A DNA stretch of 64,000 nucleotides from an uncultured virus (IMG/VR IMGVR_UViG_3300018475_001996) (Duplodnaviria > Heunggongvirae > Uroviricota > Caudoviricetes). The translations under genes and the position numbers were made by a program. This document shows, one piece after another, positions 184-26,892 of the stretch. Below the pieces are notes generated by a model. The model worked only from the letters and a program-made list of their open reading frames with translations, did not search any database and had not been told where the DNA came from. Location: positions 1 through 64,000 of IMG/VR virus record IMGVR_UViG_3300018475_001996, one strand, 5' to 3'. The first letter of the stretch is position 1. Every line of letters starts with the position of its first letter.

Positions 184-266
184 TCAGGGTAGCAGGATTC
201 GAACCTGCGATGTCACGAGGACGCTAGCTCCCGAAGCTAGTGGCAAACCAACCTGCCGCTACCCTG
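184..266 (-). tRNA. tRNA-Pro(CGG) with extended variable region
   Basis: CAGGGTA/TACCCTG acceptor, CTAGC-TTCGGGA-GCTAG anticodon arm, GCAGG-TTCGAAT-CCTGC T arm, ~15-nt variable region. Confidence 0.85.
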
Positions 267-353: not shown

Positions 354-1124
354 TTATTCAAACACATTTACCAAATTTTTATTTGGTAAAAAATGCTTAC
401 GTTTTTGTTCATCATGTTTACTATAGATTGGAATATATTTTTTAAACTTATTATGTAAAGCAATTTTAGATATTCCAAGTTCAATAGCCATATCTTCTAG
501 TTTGTTATAATTACCAGAATGATATTTATTCCATAACTTTTCAGCCAATATTTTTCCATTATCATGAAGTAATTTTATCCAAGCAGCTTTATTTATTGTT
601 ATACTATACTTACCAGATTTTTTTACTTTAATAATACTAGTTTCTCCATGAAAAAGATTTCGACCTTCAATCCAAAATGGTTCTAGTGGTTTTTCTTTAA
701 ACTTTTTAGATTCTCCAGTATTACGATTTGTATACCATTTAGTTCCAAATTGTGAATTTCTTTTTCCTGATTGGCTTATACTTGTTAATTTACTTATTGC
801 CGTAGAAAATTCAATTCTTAATTTTTCATAAACACGCGAATTAATATATCGTTTATGATTTTCATTAATACCTTGCATTCTCCATAATGCACATAACATT
901 TTATTTCTTTCAATAGTTCCTTTCTCATACATTTTAACAAGTAACCAATGACAGATAAAATGTTCTCTAGCAGTTAACTTAACAAGATTTTCTTTTTCGT
1001 TAGTTCCTCCTAATGATTTAGGTTGAATATGATGTTTTTCAAAATAACCTAAACTTCGCTTCCCATTTTCATTCTCCGTTTTTGCTTTTTCAATTATTTT
1101 ATAATATATGTTTTTGTAATTCAT
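354..1124 (-). mobile_element. free-standing HNH homing endonuclease inside tRNA array 1
   Basis: EKHHIQPKSLGGTNEKENLVKLTAREHFICHWLL HNH motif, NUMOD-like GKRNSQFGTKW, C-terminal HTH-like segment; flanked by tRNAs. Confidence 0.85.
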
Positions 1125-1179
1125 ATATTATATATAATTTTTCATTTCCCGAACTTGCAGAATACAAGTTAACAGTTAA

Positions 1180-8748: not shown

Positions 8749-8837
8749 TGGACCCGACGAGATTCGAACTCGCGACCCATCGCTTAAAAGGCGATTGCTC
8801 TACGATGTTGCCATCTAACCAACTGAGCTACAGATCC
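8749..8837 (-). tRNA. tRNA-Lys(TTT) with a hairpin inserted in the D-loop
   Basis: ATCGC-CTTTTAA-GCGAT anticodon arm; D-loop contains GATG-GCAA-CATC. Confidence 0.85.
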
Positions 8838-9306: not shown

Positions 9307-9339
9307 AAAAAACAGTTCCTGTATTGCTACAGGAACCGT
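9307..9339 (-). terminator. intrinsic terminator (attenuator) directly upstream of tRNA array 2
   Basis: ACGGTTCCTGTA-GCAA-TACAGGAACTGT followed by TTTTT. Confidence 0.85.
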
Positions 9340-9366
9340 CTAATCAGATAAAGTGAAACTTATCGT

Positions 9367-9444
9367 CTATTCGCTACCCATAGCAAAACACACAGCAACT
9401 TGCTGTTTTCTTATCTGTTTTACTTGTTTAACGAACCTTAACAT
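9367..9444 (-). CDS. putative attenuator leader peptide MLRFVKQVKQIRKQQVAVCFAMGSE (Lys/Gln/Ile/Arg-rich)
   Basis: 25-codon ORF with AAAGGA RBS; TTGCTATGGG near its end pairs with CCTGTAGCAA of the terminator. Confidence 0.8.
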   Translation of the reverse strand: MLRFVKQVKQIRKQQVAVCFAMGSE

Positions 9445-9464
9445 TTTTCTGTTATCCTTTTGAT

Positions 9465-9530
9465 ATTATATATAGTTTTTATTTTTTAATTTTCGCTATA
9501 TAATATAGCAAAAACTTTTTCTTTTGTAAA
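9465..9530 (-). promoter_or_regulatory. tandem promoters for array 2: TTTACA-17-TATATT and TATATATAAT
   Basis: -35 at 9525-9530, -10 at 9502-9507; shares TTTTAGGGGTTTACAAAAG with the array 1 promoter. Confidence 0.7.
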
Positions 9531-9549
9531 CCCCTAAAAGGAAAATTTT

Positions 9550-9990
9550 TTAGTGGTTATCGTTATCAATGATAATCTTGGATTCAGGACAGAATACAAA
9601 ATTAAACAAAGCTTCCGGGTCACGAATGAATGCGCCAAGCATTGTTGCACGATAAACGCTCTGATGGTCAATATAACCTGAAATACCTTCAGTTGTTTCA
9701 GGAAGAACCAATGTAACCTGCTTGGAAGCAAAATATTCGATAACCTTATCTTTTTCAGTTTCATAACAGTCTGAAAGACCGCCATCCATACTGACAGCTA
9801 CAAGCCAGTAATCCAACAATTCAGCAGGGGTTTCCAATACCTCATAACCCCAGTCATAGTTTCCGGAACCTTCTACTTTGATAGTGCAAGGTTCTACATG
9901 AAGGTTCGCGTATGCGCTCGCACACGGGTAACAAATTTCATGCTGAGACGAACTATTTGTTTCAAACACACCAACTCTAAGAGTTTTCAT
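9550..9990 (-). CDS. hypothetical protein with RxGVFETNSSSxH motif
   Basis: N-terminal FETNSSS motif and GYIDHQS; same gene block as the radical SAM gene. Confidence 0.65.
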   Translation of the reverse strand: MKTLRVGVFETNSSSQHEICYPCASAYANLHVEPCTIKVEGSGNYDWGYEVLETPAELLDYWLVAVSMDGGLSDCYETEKDKVIEYFASKQVTLVLPETTEGISGYIDHQSVYRATMLGAFIRDPEALFNFVFCPESKIIIDNDNH

Positions 9991-15764: not shown

Positions 15765-16062
15765 AACGGAGAGATCTAGCCTAGCAGGAATCACTAGACT
15801 AAACACAGCTACTCTACTTTTGGCATAAAGTTTCGCGTGTCAATCTGGGGGACTTATGAACACTCTTACTGGTCGGTCATCCTGTACTCAGGCTACATAG
15901 TGTTCAGCCATGGCGGCAAGTGTATAGTTTGCTAAGCTATACTCGATAATCGAATCGCCTTTAACGTATACTTCCGATTTCAAAGTATACAGCGGCTTAG
16001 CCTCTACCGATAATACCATTGGATTGGATTTCGTTCCGAGGACTAAGGCTCGAATGTCAGGT
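15765..16062 (-). ncRNA. candidate structured non-coding RNA (~300 nt), family unknown
   Basis: GC-richer intergenic stretch after a TATATT -10 box, several hairpins, no ORF of 60 aa or more. Confidence 0.5.
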
Positions 16063-19031: not shown

Positions 19032-19056
19032 AGTATGTTTCCTTTTTAAATTTTAA

Positions 19057-19410
19057 TGGACCCGTTGGGAGTCGAACCCAAGTCTTGAATAACTTCAATA
19101 TCCGTTCCTACAAGCTTTCCCTTCGAATTTACTTATTTGTCATACCTATGCCCTGAAGGTCGGCGTCGGTATAAACTAGCCTGTGATTTTCGGAAATAAT
19201 AGACAGACTTAACTATTTCCTAGCCCATTTGCGACTGGACTCTACACCCAACGGGCGAACGATATAGGTCCAGGGTTGCTATTGATTAAGCAGCCATTGC
19301 GTATGTATTAGCAATTATTGTTTTCAGACTTTTTAACGTGTGTTTTCCCTCGTCTGAGACCACGGCTTGCAACTAATATATTCATCACCCAATCGAAACC
19401 AGGCGAGCCC
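19057..19410 (-). ncRNA. ssrA: tmRNA; tag reading frame ANTYAMAA* (19286-19312)
   Basis: 5' GGGCTCG...TTTCGA, 3' GACTTGGGTTCGACTCCCAACGGGTCCA tRNA-like domain, ~354 nt, resume context ATAATT-GCT, tag ending in AA*. Confidence 0.93.
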
Positions 19411-19418
19411 AATAAATA

Positions 19419-20165
19419 CTAGATTCCGAAATGTTCCAGGAAGAAGTCCGGTCGTTTCGGGTCAAAATGATTGATGCGAATCATTTCGAGCTTAAACTTG
19501 TTCTTATTGTACATATTTATAATCTTATCATAGTTCGGACCATGAACACCCTTACGGATGAGTTCGTTAACTTCATGATAAGTAAAACCGAGCTTATCTT
19601 CGTCAGTAAGCGGCTGAAGACCGTCAATAGGAGTCTTATGAGTAAGTTCATACGGAAGACCGAGGTCATCGCCAATTTCGATAATTTCTTCGGTAGTCAA
19701 CATGTCAAGCGGTGCAAAAGAACCACAGGAATCACCCCAAAGTGTAGCATAACCGACAACGTTTTCGCTTCGGTTACAAGTATTGGCCATCAACCAACCA
19801 TTAGTCTGAGCGGTGACCATAATCTGATTAGTACGAATACGTGCACCAACATTGGTCTTGGCATCATAGGATTTGTCAGCACCGGGAACCAAAGCGAGAG
19901 ATTCCTTAACAAGCGTTTCAATATCTTGAACGTCAAAATCAATACCCAAATGGTCAACAAGCTTATAGGAATCAGAAATATCCTTCTGAATGCCGCACGG
20001 GAGCAAAATACCATGAACATGGTCCTTACCGAGTGCATGCCAGCCAATAGCCGCAGCTACAGAACTATCCTTACCACCAGAAACACCCAAAACCATATCG
20101 GTCATGCCGAGCTTGTCAAAGGTTTCCTTGGTCCACTTAACCACATTTTCTGTCAATTCTTTCAT
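19419..20165 (-). CDS. nadE: NH3-dependent NAD+ synthetase
   Basis: LGVSGGKDS, NVGARIR, NRSE..GYATLWGD and TDEDKLG motifs. Confidence 0.92.
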   Translation of the reverse strand: MKELTENVVKWTKETFDKLGMTDMVLGVSGGKDSSVAAAIGWHALGKDHVHGILLPCGIQKDISDSYKLVDHLGIDFDVQDIETLVKESLALVPGADKSYDAKTNVGARIRTNQIMVTAQTNGWLMANTCNRSENVVGYATLWGDSCGSFAPLDMLTTEEIIEIGDDLGLPYELTHKTPIDGLQPLTDEDKLGFTYHEVNELIRKGVHGPNYDKIINMYNKNKFKLEMIRINHFDPKRPDFFLEHFGI

Positions 20166-21845: not shown

Positions 21846-22988
21846 TTACCCGTTAAGATCCGCCTTATCAAACGTATGATAGTTTTCAAACAGATTCTTG
21901 AATTCGTTTACTCTGTCCATTTCATCGCAGTGTGTAATTTCCAGAACCTGATTTGTAATACCAGGCATAGAAGCGAGACTGAAATCCTTATCGATACGCT
22001 TCTTGAGGTCCTTGATGTCAAGGAAACCGTATTTAAATTCGCCTTGGAACTTATTCCTGTGATTCATCAAATCGTCCTGAATATCGCCAGAAATATTCTT
22101 ACGGTTAACTTCGTCAAATCTTCCTGCACCGTGGCGGGTCAAATACGGACGAGTAACATAATGAATAGTCAAATCGTCAACGAAATACAAATCCTGTTTA
22201 GAAACAGACTGAATACCTGTAATCGAAGGAGTCGTGTGAACATTCTTGGGGTCGTCGTTAAGCAACAATCCCTGTCCGTTTTCAAAAATGTATTCGTCAT
22301 ATCCGGACGGAATATTGGAAACGATTTTGACATGATTAAGCATGAACGTGGCATCTTGAATAAAATGCGAAAGCAATCCGTCGCTTTCCCAAATTTCTCG
22401 TTCAAGCTTACTCATTTCATATTTGGCTGTAATACCGACATTCGTATAAGAATCGAAATACTTGGTATTGTAGTAACTACGGATATACTTCAAATATGTC
22501 TTTTGGTTTGTCGGAAAATTGCGAGCGAAATCGGCAAAATCCATAATGACACTATCGCTATATCTTGCAATCGTTTCCCAAATACCCATACCGCAAGAAC
22601 CGTGTTCCTGATGATACTTCTGACGATTCTCTTCAATAATCTGGTTTGCCATCATATCGAACGGAGTCGTCCAACGGCAATCCTTATGCATGTATATATT
22701 GCACATAGGCAGCTTCTGGGCCAGCTTTGCATATTCCTTGACGAATTGCATGGGGTTGACAATAAAGTCCTTAGAGAAGTATATATCAGCCCCAAAACAC
22801 ATGCCAGAACCGAAGTGCTTGAACGTAAATACTTCACCGTCCTTCACGACGGTATGACCACGTTGAGGACCGCCGTTTGTAAGAACATTCAGAACCTTAC
22901 CGGTTGCGTTCTTTGCATAATGGGCTACAACGGTACCTTTACCTTCGTCACCCCAGTTGGATCCAATAATGATTCTTCCCTTAGCCAT
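21846..22988 (-). CDS. purA: adenylosuccinate synthetase (PurA-like)
   Basis: GSNWGDEGKG, GGPQRGHTV, HGSCGMGI, ENGQGLLL and TRPYLTRHGAG motifs. Confidence 0.88.
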   Translation of the reverse strand: MAKGRIIIGSNWGDEGKGTVVAHYAKNATGKVLNVLTNGGPQRGHTVVKDGEVFTFKHFGSGMCFGADIYFSKDFIVNPMQFVKEYAKLAQKLPMCNIYMHKDCRWTTPFDMMANQIIEENRQKYHQEHGSCGMGIWETIARYSDSVIMDFADFARNFPTNQKTYLKYIRSYYNTKYFDSYTNVGITAKYEMSKLEREIWESDGLLSHFIQDATFMLNHVKIVSNIPSGYDEYIFENGQGLLLNDDPKNVHTTPSITGIQSVSKQDLYFVDDLTIHYVTRPYLTRHGAGRFDEVNRKNISGDIQDDLMNHRNKFQGEFKYGFLDIKDLKKRIDKDFSLASMPGITNQVLEITHCDEMDRVNEFKNLFENYHTFDKADLNG

Positions 22989-23990: not shown

Positions 23991-24887
23991 TTACCAAGTA
24001 ATCGCACCGTCTTTGGTGGTCTTAACGCCATTGTCTTCGTTAAGAACGTTAACACCGTTATTGCGGCCTTCGATCGATTCAGTGATGCAGGCTTCGATTA
24101 TGTTCGGCAAGGCCTGAATTGTAGCAACCTTTGCACGAGGACCGAGCAACTGACCGAAAGAATCTTCGATACGGCGCTTATAGCTGCTGTAGCTAGTAGC
24201 CCAATCATCCACAGAGATGTGGAAAATATCGAACTTCTTGGATGCTTCAGCATAGAGCTTCTTGGTATCAACATCGGCCTGAGCCTTTGCTTCTTCACCG
24301 AGGAAGTAAGCAACCTTATTGCGAGGAAGCGTCGGATTCAACGGTTCATCGCCCATAGTGATGATAATACCCTTCTTGCCCTGCTTATCGAAGCAATCAA
24401 GCTTGGTCTGGTTAAGACCGAACAGCCATGCAGCCGAATACGATTCGTAAGCGTTTCCGCCACCGCCATGTTCCATGTAAATCTTGTCGATTGCCTTAGC
24501 AATACGAACGTCAGATTCAAACTGAGAAACCTGAAGCGGTGCATTGTCGCATTCGAGGTCACCGATACCCATTACCATAAATTCGATGTCATCCTTCTTA
24601 TGTTCCTTCAAGAGGTTAACCATAATCGGACCGAGAGCTTCTGCGGTACGACGACAAGCATCGCCCATAGAACCGGTAACATCGAATGCAAGAATAACCG
24701 GCAAAGTATTCGGATGTTCTGTGCTATTCACACATTCACGGATGACGTTCTTCGGAGACATGGATTCATCCATGCGAGTTTCCTTGAACACCTGACCGCG
24801 AGTAACATAACCGCTACTATCTACTGCCTTTCCGACGCTACAGGAATAGCTACGGAAAGAGCTCATATCAAAACTTCCGCCACCCAT
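23991..24887 (-). CDS. von Willebrand factor A (vWA) domain protein
   Basis: MIDAS DVTGSMG, GGGGNAYESY and MGDEP motifs; AGGAGG RBS. Confidence 0.85.
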   Translation of the reverse strand: MGGGSFDMSSFRSYSCSVGKAVDSSGYVTRGQVFKETRMDESMSPKNVIRECVNSTEHPNTLPVILAFDVTGSMGDACRRTAEALGPIMVNLLKEHKKDDIEFMVMGIGDLECDNAPLQVSQFESDVRIAKAIDKIYMEHGGGGNAYESYSAAWLFGLNQTKLDCFDKQGKKGIIITMGDEPLNPTLPRNKVAYFLGEEAKAQADVDTKKLYAEASKKFDIFHISVDDWATSYSSYKRRIEDSFGQLLGPRAKVATIQALPNIIEACITESIEGRNNGVNVLNEDNGVKTTKDGAITW

Positions 24888-24902: not shown

Positions 24903-25619
24903 TTACTTAGTTACCTTCTTGGTCTTCTTAGCCGGCTTCTTCGGCGTTTCATCTTCTTCTTCACCGGTTTCTGCATCAAGTTCAGCATCTTCATTTTCGA
25001 TGGTGTTCCAGGTTGCATCAGTATCGAAGTCAAGGTTGAACATGTTGGTGAAGTCGAGGCCGTTACCAGCACCACCGCCGAACATCTGCTGCATCATGAG
25101 CATCTGACCCATGCCGCCGAACATATCGCCGCCGTTGCCGTTACCGTTGCCACCCATCATGCTCTTCATGATCATGAGCTGAATCATCTTGCCCATAAGG
25201 CCCTTACCCTTGAGGCCAGCGTTTCCAAAGAGGGAAACAATCTTGCCGTACCAGAAAGCGTTGCCGAGGAATACGTGACGTTCCGGAACGATTTCACGGA
25301 TTTCGCTGGTTTCGTAGTCGATGCACTTAATCGAACGGTCTTCGTCGCAAACACGGAGAACGCACTTCGGCTTGCCGTGGTCGAGAATGACGTCACCCGG
25401 CTGGACCTTGCTGGTCGGGAGGACGAAGAACATGTCAGAAGCTTCCATACAGAAGTTCGTGACGTTAGTCAAGCGCTTCTTCGCCATGTTGTAAGTCTTG
25501 TAACCATTGCTGGTCTTGATGGCAATGCCACCGCTCATCGAAAGGGCGCAAAGACCCTTGTCGATCTTGCCGAACATACCCTTGAATGTGTTACCCATGT
25601 TGAAATCGAAATTGAACAT
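24903..25619 (-). CDS. hypothetical protein with Met/Gly-rich C-terminal region
   Basis: Strong RBS, biased codon use, adjacent to the vWA gene. Confidence 0.7.
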   Translation of the reverse strand: MFNFDFNMGNTFKGMFGKIDKGLCALSMSGGIAIKTSNGYKTYNMAKKRLTNVTNFCMEASDMFFVLPTSKVQPGDVILDHGKPKCVLRVCDEDRSIKCIDYETSEIREIVPERHVFLGNAFWYGKIVSLFGNAGLKGKGLMGKMIQLMIMKSMMGGNGNGNGGDMFGGMGQMLMMQQMFGGGAGNGLDFTNMFNLDFDTDATWNTIENEDAELDAETGEEEDETPKKPAKKTKKVTK

Positions 25620-25666
25620 ATTGATTTTCCTTTTTTGTTTTATTGTTATTGTTTTTGTTTAGATTT

Positions 25667-25987
25667 TTACCATCTAATAACGTACTCTTCTGTTTCCTTA
25701 TCTTCAGGTTCATAAAGTTCCCAGAAGGTTTCGTTAGGCATCGCATAGAATTGACCGTTAATACCTTTAACGACCCAATCGCCTTCTATGGCTGTATGCT
25801 CGCCAGTAGTTGTCTTGATAGTTACTCTTATTTTATTATGGTTAAAGTAATCGAGCGTATAATCGGTTTCGATAAAACCTTCACCCCAGCCTAAAAGAAG
25901 AGGGAGAGTTTCTTGTGCAATTTTGACCGCTTCTACCGTAATTGGTTTCTTGCGGAATCGAGGAATTTTAACGTCTTGTGTTTCCAT
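25667..25987 (-). CDS. hypothetical phage protein (RKKP.VEA...GDW.VKG..G.FY family)
   Basis: Recognisable phage motif pattern. Confidence 0.65.
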   Translation of the reverse strand: METQDVKIPRFRKKPITVEAVKIAQETLPLLLGWGEGFIETDYTLDYFNHNKIRVTIKTTTGEHTAIEGDWVVKGINGQFYAMPNETFWELYEPEDKETEEYVIRW

Positions 25988-26011
25988 TTTTAATCTCTGT
26001 GGTAAATATAA

Positions 26012-26042
26012 TAAAAAAACCGCTTTTTGTAAGCGGCTTTTT
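26012..26042 (-). terminator. intrinsic terminator (third attenuator), overlapping a promoter
   Basis: AAAAAGCCGCTT-ACAAA-AAGCGGTTTTTTT; also reads CTTACA-17-TATATT. Confidence 0.75.
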
Positions 26043-26080
26043 GTTAAAATTTTTTGTAAATTTTAATTAATGATATTTAA

Positions 26081-26152
26081 TCAAAATACGACAAAACAAG
26101 CCGCGATATGTGACTTGCTTGATGATGAAATGTCGTACTTGCGAATAATCAT
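26081..26152 (-). CDS. putative attenuator leader peptide MIIRKYDISSSSKSHIAACFVVF (Ser-rich)
   Basis: 23 codons after TATATATAAT and AGGT; GCGGCTT pairs with terminator arm AAGCCGC. Confidence 0.65.
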   Translation of the reverse strand: MIIRKYDISSSSKSHIAACFVVF

Positions 26153-26181
26153 TTTTGTTACCTATGCATTATATATAGGAA

Positions 26182-26892
26182 TTATTTTTTGGTTTTCGCT
26201 TTTCTGAACGAAGTTTTTCTGTCAAAACCATAAGCTTCCAGACGGGTAATGTCGTCGCCTACAGGTACGATAGCATCGTCAGGTCTAGCATGAGTATCAT
26301 ACCAATGTTCTAATTCCCATAATGCCATGTATGGATCTTTCGCCAGTTGGAATCGATAATCCTTCAGGCATGGCCAGGAAACAAAATTATAGTTACGCTG
26401 CCTATGCGGAAGTTCATTATATTTGGTCAGATTACGATAATCATCCAAATATAATACAGGACCGAACTTTTCAAATAACTCATAATTCCAGAATTTTACA
26501 TCATCTGGATTTTTGTAATTGATATTACGGTCTTCTTTATTGATTCCAAACAATTTGGCTAACGACAGTTCACGATTACTCTTTACGATTTCGTCGAATG
26601 TATAATATTGAATTGTCGAAGGATCCGGTATATGATAATAATCTCGTTCTTCAGTAAAGAAATACCACTTTCCGCAGAAACCAATCATATGAAGATACTT
26701 ATGGCCAAATGTCTTGCCATAACGTCCATCAAAGATATAGGCCAACTTACCGTCGAAATTTCCTAAGCTTTCAACTTCGCCAGAACGAATAAAATTATCT
26801 TTAGTATTACGATGAATTACAACTTCAGATTCGTTAAACGAACCTAACGTGCAATCATAATAATCTTGGAATTTAGAAAATAATCTGAGCAT
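26182..26892 (-). CDS. hypothetical phage protein
   Basis: SKFQDYYD, IGFCGK and YGFDRKTSFR motifs. Confidence 0.65.
   Translation of the reverse strand: MLRLFSKFQDYYDCTLGSFNESEVVIHRNTKDNFIRSGEVESLGNFDGKLAYIFDGRYGKTFGHKYLHMIGFCGKWYFFTEERDYYHIPDPSTIQYYTFDEIVKSNRELSLAKLFGINKEDRNINYKNPDDVKFWNYELFEKFGPVLYLDDYRNLTKYNELPHRQRNYNFVSWPCLKDYRFQLAKDPYMALWELEHWYDTHARPDDAIVPVGDDITRLEAYGFDRKTSFRKAKTKK

Follow-up and report, generated by a model that had tools for sequence, protein, structure and literature searches.

A serine-codon leader before a megaphage protein operon as a candidate ribosome-mediated transcription attenuator

Introduction

Leader-peptide attenuation is textbook regulation for bacterial amino-acid operons, and to our knowledge no serine leader is found among the classical attenuators. 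A strong bias towards one synonymous codon is a described feature of such leaders; for the leu attenuator, sensitivity is reported to be lower once CUA is replaced (PMC1183508). In Bacillus subtilis, TCN serine codons within sinR have been described as a serine sensor (PMC3862929). Here we analyze a short leader with a run of UCA serine codons, the Ser-leader unit, in a 64,000-nucleotide (nt) stretch of DNA from an uncultured Caudoviricetes virus (IMG/VR record IMGVR_UViG_3300018475_001996, positions 1 to 64,000; hereafter the window). We argue that this unit is probably a ribosome-mediated transcription attenuator that senses slow UCA decoding and gates read-through into a protein operon with an additional promoter of its own, a reading that we hold at roughly 60%.

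The window comes from a record of 136,626 bp (37.5% G+C) that is itself a fragment of a 411,059-bp virus record (G002), with which it shares 100% identity in its proteins and 100% DNA identity in the leader element. G002 is a rumen/gut megaphage with a CheckV completeness of 98% and 53 Rfam tRNA matches.

Results

Anatomy of the Ser-leader unit

Every element that the original prediction had described at this locus is present in the sequence and in its place, on the minus strand. The unit opens with a box, TATATATAAT (26168..26177), a putative -10-type promoter common to all leader units of this kind (TATATAGAAT in sister lineages), which presumably acts as a promoter. The stop codon of the upstream gene (26182..26892, minus strand; 236 amino acids (aa), PHROG 4243, function unknown) lies just 4 nt before this box, and transcripts from upstream therefore enter the leader; RNA contigs indeed extend from the 236-aa gene into it. 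An AGGT Shine-Dalgarno (SD)-like element (26160..26163), of which GGT is invariant in our alignment, is placed 7 nt before the ATG of a leader open reading frame (ORF; 26081..26152) of 23 codons plus TGA. This ORF encodes the peptide MIIRKYDISSSSKSHIAACFVVF and holds TCA TCA TCA AGC AAG TCA as well as four Ile codons (ATT three times and ATC). Codons 9-11, the run of three UCA codons (26120..26128), are invariant across lineages and are the proposed control codons.

Within the ORF, the 5′ strand of a leader hairpin that we call H1 (AAGTACGACA, 26131..26140; region 1) can form 10 pairs, one of them G.U, with TGTCGTATTT (26084..26093). Between these strands lies region 2, GCGGCTT (26104-26098), an exact complement of AAGCCGC (26039-26033) in the 5′ arm of the downstream terminator; region 2 could thus be either sequestered in H1 or engaged in an antiterminator with that arm. 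An A/U-rich spacer separates the leader ORF from this intrinsic terminator (26014..26042), which has 12 pairs, 4 of them G-C (5′ arm 26042-26031, loop of 5 at 26030-26026, 3′ arm 26025-26014), and a T-run to 26013. A sigma70-like promoter, CTTACA-17-TATATT (26005..26033; 9 of 12 matches), overlaps the terminator such that its -35 hexamer is the terminator loop. This overlap, already part of the original prediction, is confirmed, and both hexamers are invariant in 7/7 aligned sequences. Scans for such signals are weak on their own: shuffles yield 3.0 ± 2.0 terminator-like sites, where the real sequence has 6, and 11.5 ± 3.3 promoter-like sites, where it has 16.

The leader is conserved in six lineages

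We searched for homologues by using neighbouring proteins as anchors, followed by blastn and by a general search for small ORFs with a terminator behind them. Leader homologues were found at 4 of 9 viral loci, 7 of 50 metagenome loci and 2 of 13 further loci anchored on an isochorismatase-like gene. They represent six lineages, with flanking-protein identity down to ~40%, and all six keep the box, the SD GGT, the ATG, TCATCATCAA, the terminator and both hexamers of the overlapping promoter. The box takes the form TATATAGAAT in the L003, L004, L093/L094/L118 and L095/L123 lineages. The leader ORF is 23-24 codons long throughout, with its frame and stop position kept and a sole indel of 3 nt. 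The encoded peptides are MIIRKYDISSSSKSHIAACFVVF in the window type (also L067 and L068), MIIRKYDIISSSSKSHIAACFVVF in L069, MINLNYNRTSSSNKSHQRFMFVIV in L003, MINFNYNRISSSDKSHKRFMFVIV in L004, MINFNYNRISSSSESHERFCFVIV in L093, L094 and L118, and MINFNYSISSSSKSSKRFVFAVL in L095 and L123. Conservation of the peptide is not protein-like, with 10, 12 and 13 variable columns at the three codon positions (24 columns each), as would be expected of a leader peptide rather than of a functional small protein.

Each of the three genomes searched has one copy of the element. An exact-motif scan of viral contigs returned 7 loci, of which 3 belong to two known lineages and 4 are chance coding matches (3 of them the same sequence), and a BLAST search of the region against a collection of phages returned one unannotated record, 69% identical along just 13% of the query. 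Relatives that we reached by way of the VWA-like protein encoded downstream of the unit have the homologous gene pair and no leader; one of these, L015, has just the terminator and promoter.

The proposed control codons are the rarest serine codon of the phage

Across the six lineages, serine codons 9-11 are TCA in all 18 of 18 instances. The original prediction had described a Ser-UCA-rich leader with four Ile codons; the TCA run has proved invariant, while the Ile codons vary among lineages. TCA is the rarest Ser codon of this phage, at 9.6% of Ser codons in 82 ORFs of at least 200 aa (a set that may include antisense shadow ORFs). It accounts for 6 of 112 Ser codons (5.4%), and 6 of 2615 codons overall, in 12 neighbouring genes, compared with 4 of the 23 codons of the window leader. 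The three genes behind the unit use TCA for 0 of 32 Ser codons, with ~1.7 expected, a difference that is not significant. Complements of the UCA run occur at 2 loci per strand of the 136-kb fragment against 0.6 expected, a count to which we give no weight, the motif being a common coding trinucleotide repeat.

A modelled stall at the serine run yields an antiterminator

We next considered the structures that this leader could adopt. The minimum-energy folds of the window, L003 and L095 leaders comprise a long H1, an inner H1 helix and the terminator, with the inner helix sequestering GCGGCUU (AGCGGUUU in the other clade) against the codons directly after the Ser run. L093 shows a similar leader hairpin, and in L069 the H1 outer stem is not predicted. 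When placed on the codon-level alignment, the H1 outer stem has 9 pairs, 4 of them with changes on both sides, and 91.1% of cells are paired, compared to 29-53% once the partner strand is shifted 1-3 columns out of register. Its covariation score is 0.444 (0.218 in shuffles), a value attained in 2 of 500 shuffles. Covariation between clades is also seen for region 2 with the terminator 5′ arm (GCGGCUU:AAGCCGC versus AGCGGUUU:GGACCGCU, a C-G to U-A change), which, as a single pair, lends limited support.

We then modelled the switch in silico by masking the footprint of a ribosome, from 15 nt before to 14 nt after the A site, and cutting the RNA just before the 3′ arm of the terminator. This procedure took the place of folding the whole leader at equilibrium with a ribosome masked, an approach that was unable to show a switch, the terminator always winning. 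The test covered five lineages, with L004 left out. Stalls at any codon up to the Ser run gave 6-9 antiterminator pairs with terminator-arm bases in 5/5 lineages, with a helix extending to 13 bp in L095, and stalls in the 4-8 codons after the run gave 0-1. In 5/5 lineages, the Ser run is the last position at which a modelled stall still yields the antiterminator; it therefore sits at the 3′ edge of the antitermination stall window, as classical control codons do. Without a ribosome, the cut RNA formed 0 antiterminator pairs in 3 of 5 lineages. The full stall-dependent pattern arose in 7 of 400 dinucleotide shuffles for the window, and in as many for L003.

Sister units precede tRNA arrays and match them in codon content

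The TATATATAAT box occurs 11 times on the gene strand of G002 and 5 times on the other strand, compared to 4 and 4 for a reversed control pattern. Seven of the 11 gene-strand boxes head units composed of an SD, a short ORF and a terminator; another two head HNH-like ORFs in tRNA arrays, one stands before an unassigned, non-coding-looking stretch and one is without such a design. Of the seven leader units, six precede tRNA arrays, and the Ser unit alone precedes protein genes. Each tRNA array in G002 and in the related phage G001 is preceded by TTTACA-17-TATATT, ~50 nt, the TATATATAAT box, an SD, a 20-37-codon leader and a terminator; the Ser unit has the shared module of box, SD, ORF within this size range and terminator. 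Such tRNA-array leader units lie on the minus strand of the window (9310-9560 and 1350-1610), and at arrays of G002 (L057-L060) and of G001 (L055-L056). That the Ser unit is an attenuator of the same design, as originally proposed, is upheld: the box, SD spacing, ORF size and terminator layout are common to it and the six tRNA-array units, and its alternative pairings are conserved. The terminators of the tRNA-array units share a UUCCUGU/ACAGGAA core, to which the Ser-unit terminator sequence is unrelated.

We compared the leaders of G002 and G001, translated from stored DNA, with the tRNAs behind them as typed by ARAGORN, scoring each combination by the fraction of leader residues whose amino acid has a tRNA in the array. 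Every leader scores highest with its own array (diagonal values of 0.38-0.74 in G002), and in each phage a single permutation, out of 720 for G002 and 120 for G001, reaches the observed diagonal sum. As their content tracks their own arrays, the sister leaders are read as codons, and because of this match we treat the Ser leader as a translated sensor rather than as an RNA element alone. We do not use masked-ribosome folding of the tRNA-array units as support: terminators were located for all but 3 units, and several of them formed antiterminator pairs both with and without a ribosome.

tRNA-Ser(UGA), the tRNA for the proposed control codons, is encoded in a distant Tyr/Cys/Met/Ser array in both complete leader-carrying genomes, G002 and G004. 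In G002, this array, a different one, is ~100 kb from the Ser leader. The tRNA was not found in G001, a genome that is only 40% complete.

Several other features of these arrays deserve mention. The leader before the G002 Tyr/Cys/Met/Ser array (L060 772-900; G002 ~212271-212400) carries a TAA in frame after codon 8; beyond this TAA, the Cys/Ser-rich remainder stays in frame, and the homologous G001 leader is uninterrupted. HNH-like ORFs with their own TATATATAAT box stand at equivalent places within the tRNA arrays of both phages (window 370-1136, minus strand; L058 7309; G001 52555) and look like homing endonucleases. At L057 5400-6030 (G002 139899-140530), a TATATATAAT box is followed by ~630 nt of non-coding-looking, G+C-richer sequence ahead of a tRNA-Met; Rfam searches of the region behind the box at G002:139899 matched only two tRNAs and no family for the ~630-nt stretch. 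Some tRNA-like genes are matched by Rfam and left untyped by ARAGORN (window 184-266, 8749-8820 and 1273-1352; G002 148935-149291 and 140983-141095), and several Rfam tRNA matches are 112-115 nt long and may contain introns.

Metatranscriptome contigs break at the leader

RNA data were available as assembled metatranscriptome contigs of relatives 95-99% identical to the window, which cannot give levels, ends or strand. In three runs from two studies, contigs break at the intergenic region. The upstream contig reaches down to 26097 in run X2, 26117 in X3 and 26126 in X4, and the next contig starts from 25978, 25986 and 25977, respectively; upstream and downstream depths are 13 and 28 in X2 and 13 and 29 in X3. 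A fourth run, for which it is uncertain whether RNA or DNA was sequenced, bridges 25848-26295. The break is a weak hint of a transcript boundary with an independent downstream promoter, and assembly effects are possible. Low contig cover over 26033-26139 was set aside as no finding, as contigs give neither levels nor ends.

Protein genes, and no tRNAs, follow the unit

Directly behind the terminator, also on the minus strand, are genes for a 106-aa protein (25667..25987, ATG at 25987; PHROG 419, function unknown), a 238-aa Met/Gly-rich protein that has no assigned family and falls in viral clusters only (24903..25619) and a 298-aa protein (23991..24887; PHROG 2971). The last of these had been predicted as a vWA protein; the ORF is present, and the label is based only on the automatic name of its Atlas cluster, 'VWA domain-containing', with no match in Pfam. 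Searches with PADLOC, Pfam and NCBIfam returned nothing for the three proteins, and PADLOC on the neighbouring proteins gave a single weak match (E 0.0015) to an upstream phosphoesterase.

The first genes of the operon differ in the sister lineages. In L003, L004 and L093, the first ORF behind the leader has 50-63 aa, and next to it stands an isochorismatase-family gene (Pfam PF00857, E 9e-14 and 1e-19), which in L095 comes directly after the terminator. Its best named matches are weak ones to nicotinamidase/pyrazinamidase (PDB 1ilw, E 4.5e-6; NF008623, below its cut-off), and an NAD-salvage-type gene lies at L083 4942-5532. NadE is encoded ~1.2 kb behind the leader in L069 and at 19419-20165 in the window (TIGR00552, 141.9 bits against a cut-off of 63.65). 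Genes of NAD-salvage type thus recur in the operon behind the leader. In more distant phages (L121/L122, upstream of 2501), the gene preceding the nicotinamidase-like gene appears PncB-like by eye.

Farther along the window, a PurA/PurZ-like gene (21846-22988, minus strand) matches PHROG 1211 ('2-aminooxy adenylosuccinate synthetase') with E 3e-43 and scores 26.6 bits with the NCBIfam PurZ model, whose cut-off is 300; given this gene, a Z-base genome is possible. Two structured RNAs lie downstream of the operon in the same orientation (minus strand), a transfer-messenger RNA (19054-19410; Rfam, 133.5 bits; tag ANTYAMAA) and a cow-rumen-2 RNA (15845-15948; 94.5 bits).

Neither ARAGORN nor Rfam finds a tRNA in window positions 19411-64000. 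The original prediction had suggested that a Ser/Ile tRNA array might have been deleted here, and that related phages be inspected for Ser tRNAs after the terminator. None were found: all 8 of 8 homologous loci, from six lineages, have 0 tRNAs behind the unit, and the unit precedes protein genes in every one of them. With no tRNA behind the unit in any lineage, a recent deletion is unlikely, and the persistence of the TCA run alongside variable Ile codons likewise goes against a lost Ser/Ile array.

Discussion

A model for UCA-dependent read-through

From these data, we infer that the leader is translated, that ribosomes stall at UCA and that stalling affects read-through, which could proceed as follows. 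Transcripts from the TATATATAAT box and/or the upstream operon would carry the 23-codon leader, in which codons 9-11 are the rare UCA. If the leader is untranslated or quickly translated, H1 would hold GCGGCUU, the terminator would form and transcription would stop. A ribosome lingering at or before the UCA run, when tRNA-Ser(UGA) is scarce or uncharged, would instead cover the 5′ half of H1, and the freed GCGGCUU could pair with the terminator 5′ arm before the 3′ arm is made. RNA polymerase would then read on into the protein operon, here the genes for the 106-aa, 238-aa and VWA-like proteins and in sister lineages first the nicotinamidase-like gene. The conserved sigma70-like promoter in the terminator may provide the operon with a supply of transcript independent of the attenuator, and the switch would then add to expression rather than be its sole determinant. 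Judging from the anatomy, it is reasonable to expect that the downstream genes are induced by tRNA-Ser(UGA) shortage.

A number of observations weigh against this model. The ribosome-free cut RNA forms the antiterminator in L069 (6 pairs) and L093 (9 pairs), and several lineages form pairs also when the ribosome is stalled on the final leader codons or the stop codon (6 each in the window and L069, 9 in L093), which a clean contrast between early and late stalls would not lead one to expect. At least 6 antiterminator pairs appear under a stall in 133 of 400 shuffles of the window and 129 of 400 of L003. The full-length RNA at equilibrium always folds with the terminator; antitermination could therefore only be kinetic, as it likewise is in the trp attenuator. 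Leader translation and promoter activity of the box are read from sequence, and the leader ORF has no third-position bias, with 10, 12 and 13 variable columns at the three codon positions (24 columns each). Upstream RNA contigs stop within the leader (26097-26126) rather than at the T-run. The downstream genes, with a conserved promoter overlapping the terminator, can do without read-through, and none of the downstream proteins is known to be linked to serine or tRNA-Ser from Pfam, PHROG, PADLOC, NCBIfam and cluster searches.

Alternative explanations

Some of these points would fit an ordinary operon boundary, that is, a constitutive terminator followed by the promoter of the next operon, with the ORF as a gene for a tiny hydrophobic-tailed peptide or as a chance frame and no conditional read-through. 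The terminator is strong and wins at equilibrium, the conserved promoter overlaps it, RNA contigs break here with greater depth downstream (28-29) than upstream (13) in two runs, and the more distant relative L015 has just a terminator and promoter before the homologous gene pair. We nevertheless consider such a boundary unlikely, since it leaves unexplained the invariant rare-codon run, the covarying H1, the conserved complementarity of region 2 and the module shared with six codon-matched units; the poor conservation of the peptide sequence further argues against a functional small protein. Still less probable, in our judgement, is a small non-coding RNA (sRNA) in which the box is the promoter, H1 the body, the unpaired UCAUCAUCA a target seed and the hairpin with its U-run the RNA's own terminator, the ORF being incidental. 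Many sRNAs have this layout of promoter, hairpin, conserved single strand and terminator; the absence of third-position bias, the invariant 10-nt TCATCATCAA that is unpaired in the predicted H1 and sub-threshold Rfam matches to several sRNA families are consistent with it too. An sRNA, however, has no role for the conserved complementarity of region 2 with the terminator 5′ arm, nor would it call for an SD, ATG, frame, ORF length and stop position kept in six lineages with a sole 3-nt indel, and the tracking of tRNA arrays by the codon content of the sister units is explained only by translation.

The leader could also be a relic that once gated a Ser (and Ile) tRNA array, since deleted or moved, and that is now functionless. 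Although six of seven units of this design precede tRNA arrays and the phage tRNA-Ser(UGA) is found ~100 kb off in another array, we find this very improbable: homologous loci are uniformly free of tRNAs (8/8, in six lineages), the structure is maintained by compensatory changes, the terminator is unlike the UUCCUGU/ACAGGAA type of the tRNA-array units and the element is single copy. As a more speculative extension of the attenuator reading, the phage may use decoding capacity as a general regulatory signal, sensed for the arrays by their own codons and for the protein operon by the rare UCA. The operon might then be switched on when host immunity or starvation disables tRNA-Ser, as a counter-defence trigger, or remain on until phage tRNA-Ser(UGA) accumulates, as an infection timer. 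We regard this extension as doubtful, and that the downstream proteins are counter-defence factors, as first proposed, is a guess.

These findings suggest that the sensing module of this megaphage's tRNA arrays has also been placed before protein genes, where it would probe decoding through a single rare codon. If this is true, the locus would be an example, open to direct testing, of a virus that sets its gene expression by the state of a single tRNA species, and downstream genes of no known function would be marked as part of a response to impaired decoding.

Comparison with known systems

Among the closest counterparts of the Ser unit are the six phage tRNA-array attenuators described here, which have the same TATATATAAT box, SD spacing, ORF size, terminator distance and presumed slow-decoding logic. 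Unlike them, the Ser unit has no tRNA genes behind it, uses one codon type rather than a mix and ends in a terminator of unrelated sequence; it also lacks the upstream TTTACA-17-TATATT, and a promoter of that type follows the leader instead. In full-text searches, which leave most subscription journals outside, we found no report of leader-peptide attenuation for phage tRNA arrays or protein operons, nor of a serine-codon leader attenuator.

Other systems share single aspects of the proposed mechanism. The Salmonella mgtA and mgtCBR leaders (mgtL and mgtP, with proline codons) sense hungry codons and control read-through into genes unconnected with synthesis of the sensed amino acid; they also sense Mg2+ or ATP and differ from the Ser unit in organism, amino acid and RNA. 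T-box riboswitches likewise gate a terminator by the state of a specific tRNA, but they bind the tRNA directly and need no translation, and Rfam gives no T-box match in the Ser unit. In the sinR sensor of B. subtilis, TCN rather than AGC/AGT codons report the serine state, as proposed here for UCA; the effect there is on translation of the regulated protein itself, without a leader ORF or terminator (PMC3862929).

The Ser unit also resembles the attenuators of bacterial amino-acid operons (trpL, hisL, leuL, thrL and pheL), with which it has in common a short ORF with a run of control codons, and a 1:2 hairpin, 2:3 antiterminator and 3:4 intrinsic terminator, here predicted by folding. The use of a single biased synonymous codon also has a parallel in the CUA of the leu attenuator (PMC1183508). 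No Rfam family reaches its gathering score for the Ser unit; sub-threshold scores are 25.9 bits for Phe_leader (E 0.021; threshold 55), 21.1 for Thr_leader (55) and 14.4 for Trp_leader (41). In classical attenuators, the genes under control serve to synthesize or charge the amino acid that is sensed, whereas the proteins downstream of the Ser unit show no serine or tRNA-Ser function; and, unlike these attenuators, the Ser unit sits in a phage and has a promoter built into its terminator. The proposed mechanism would therefore be classical and its setting different: a phage, a rare serine codon used for sensing, a protein operon that is not biosynthetic and a promoter lying within the terminator.

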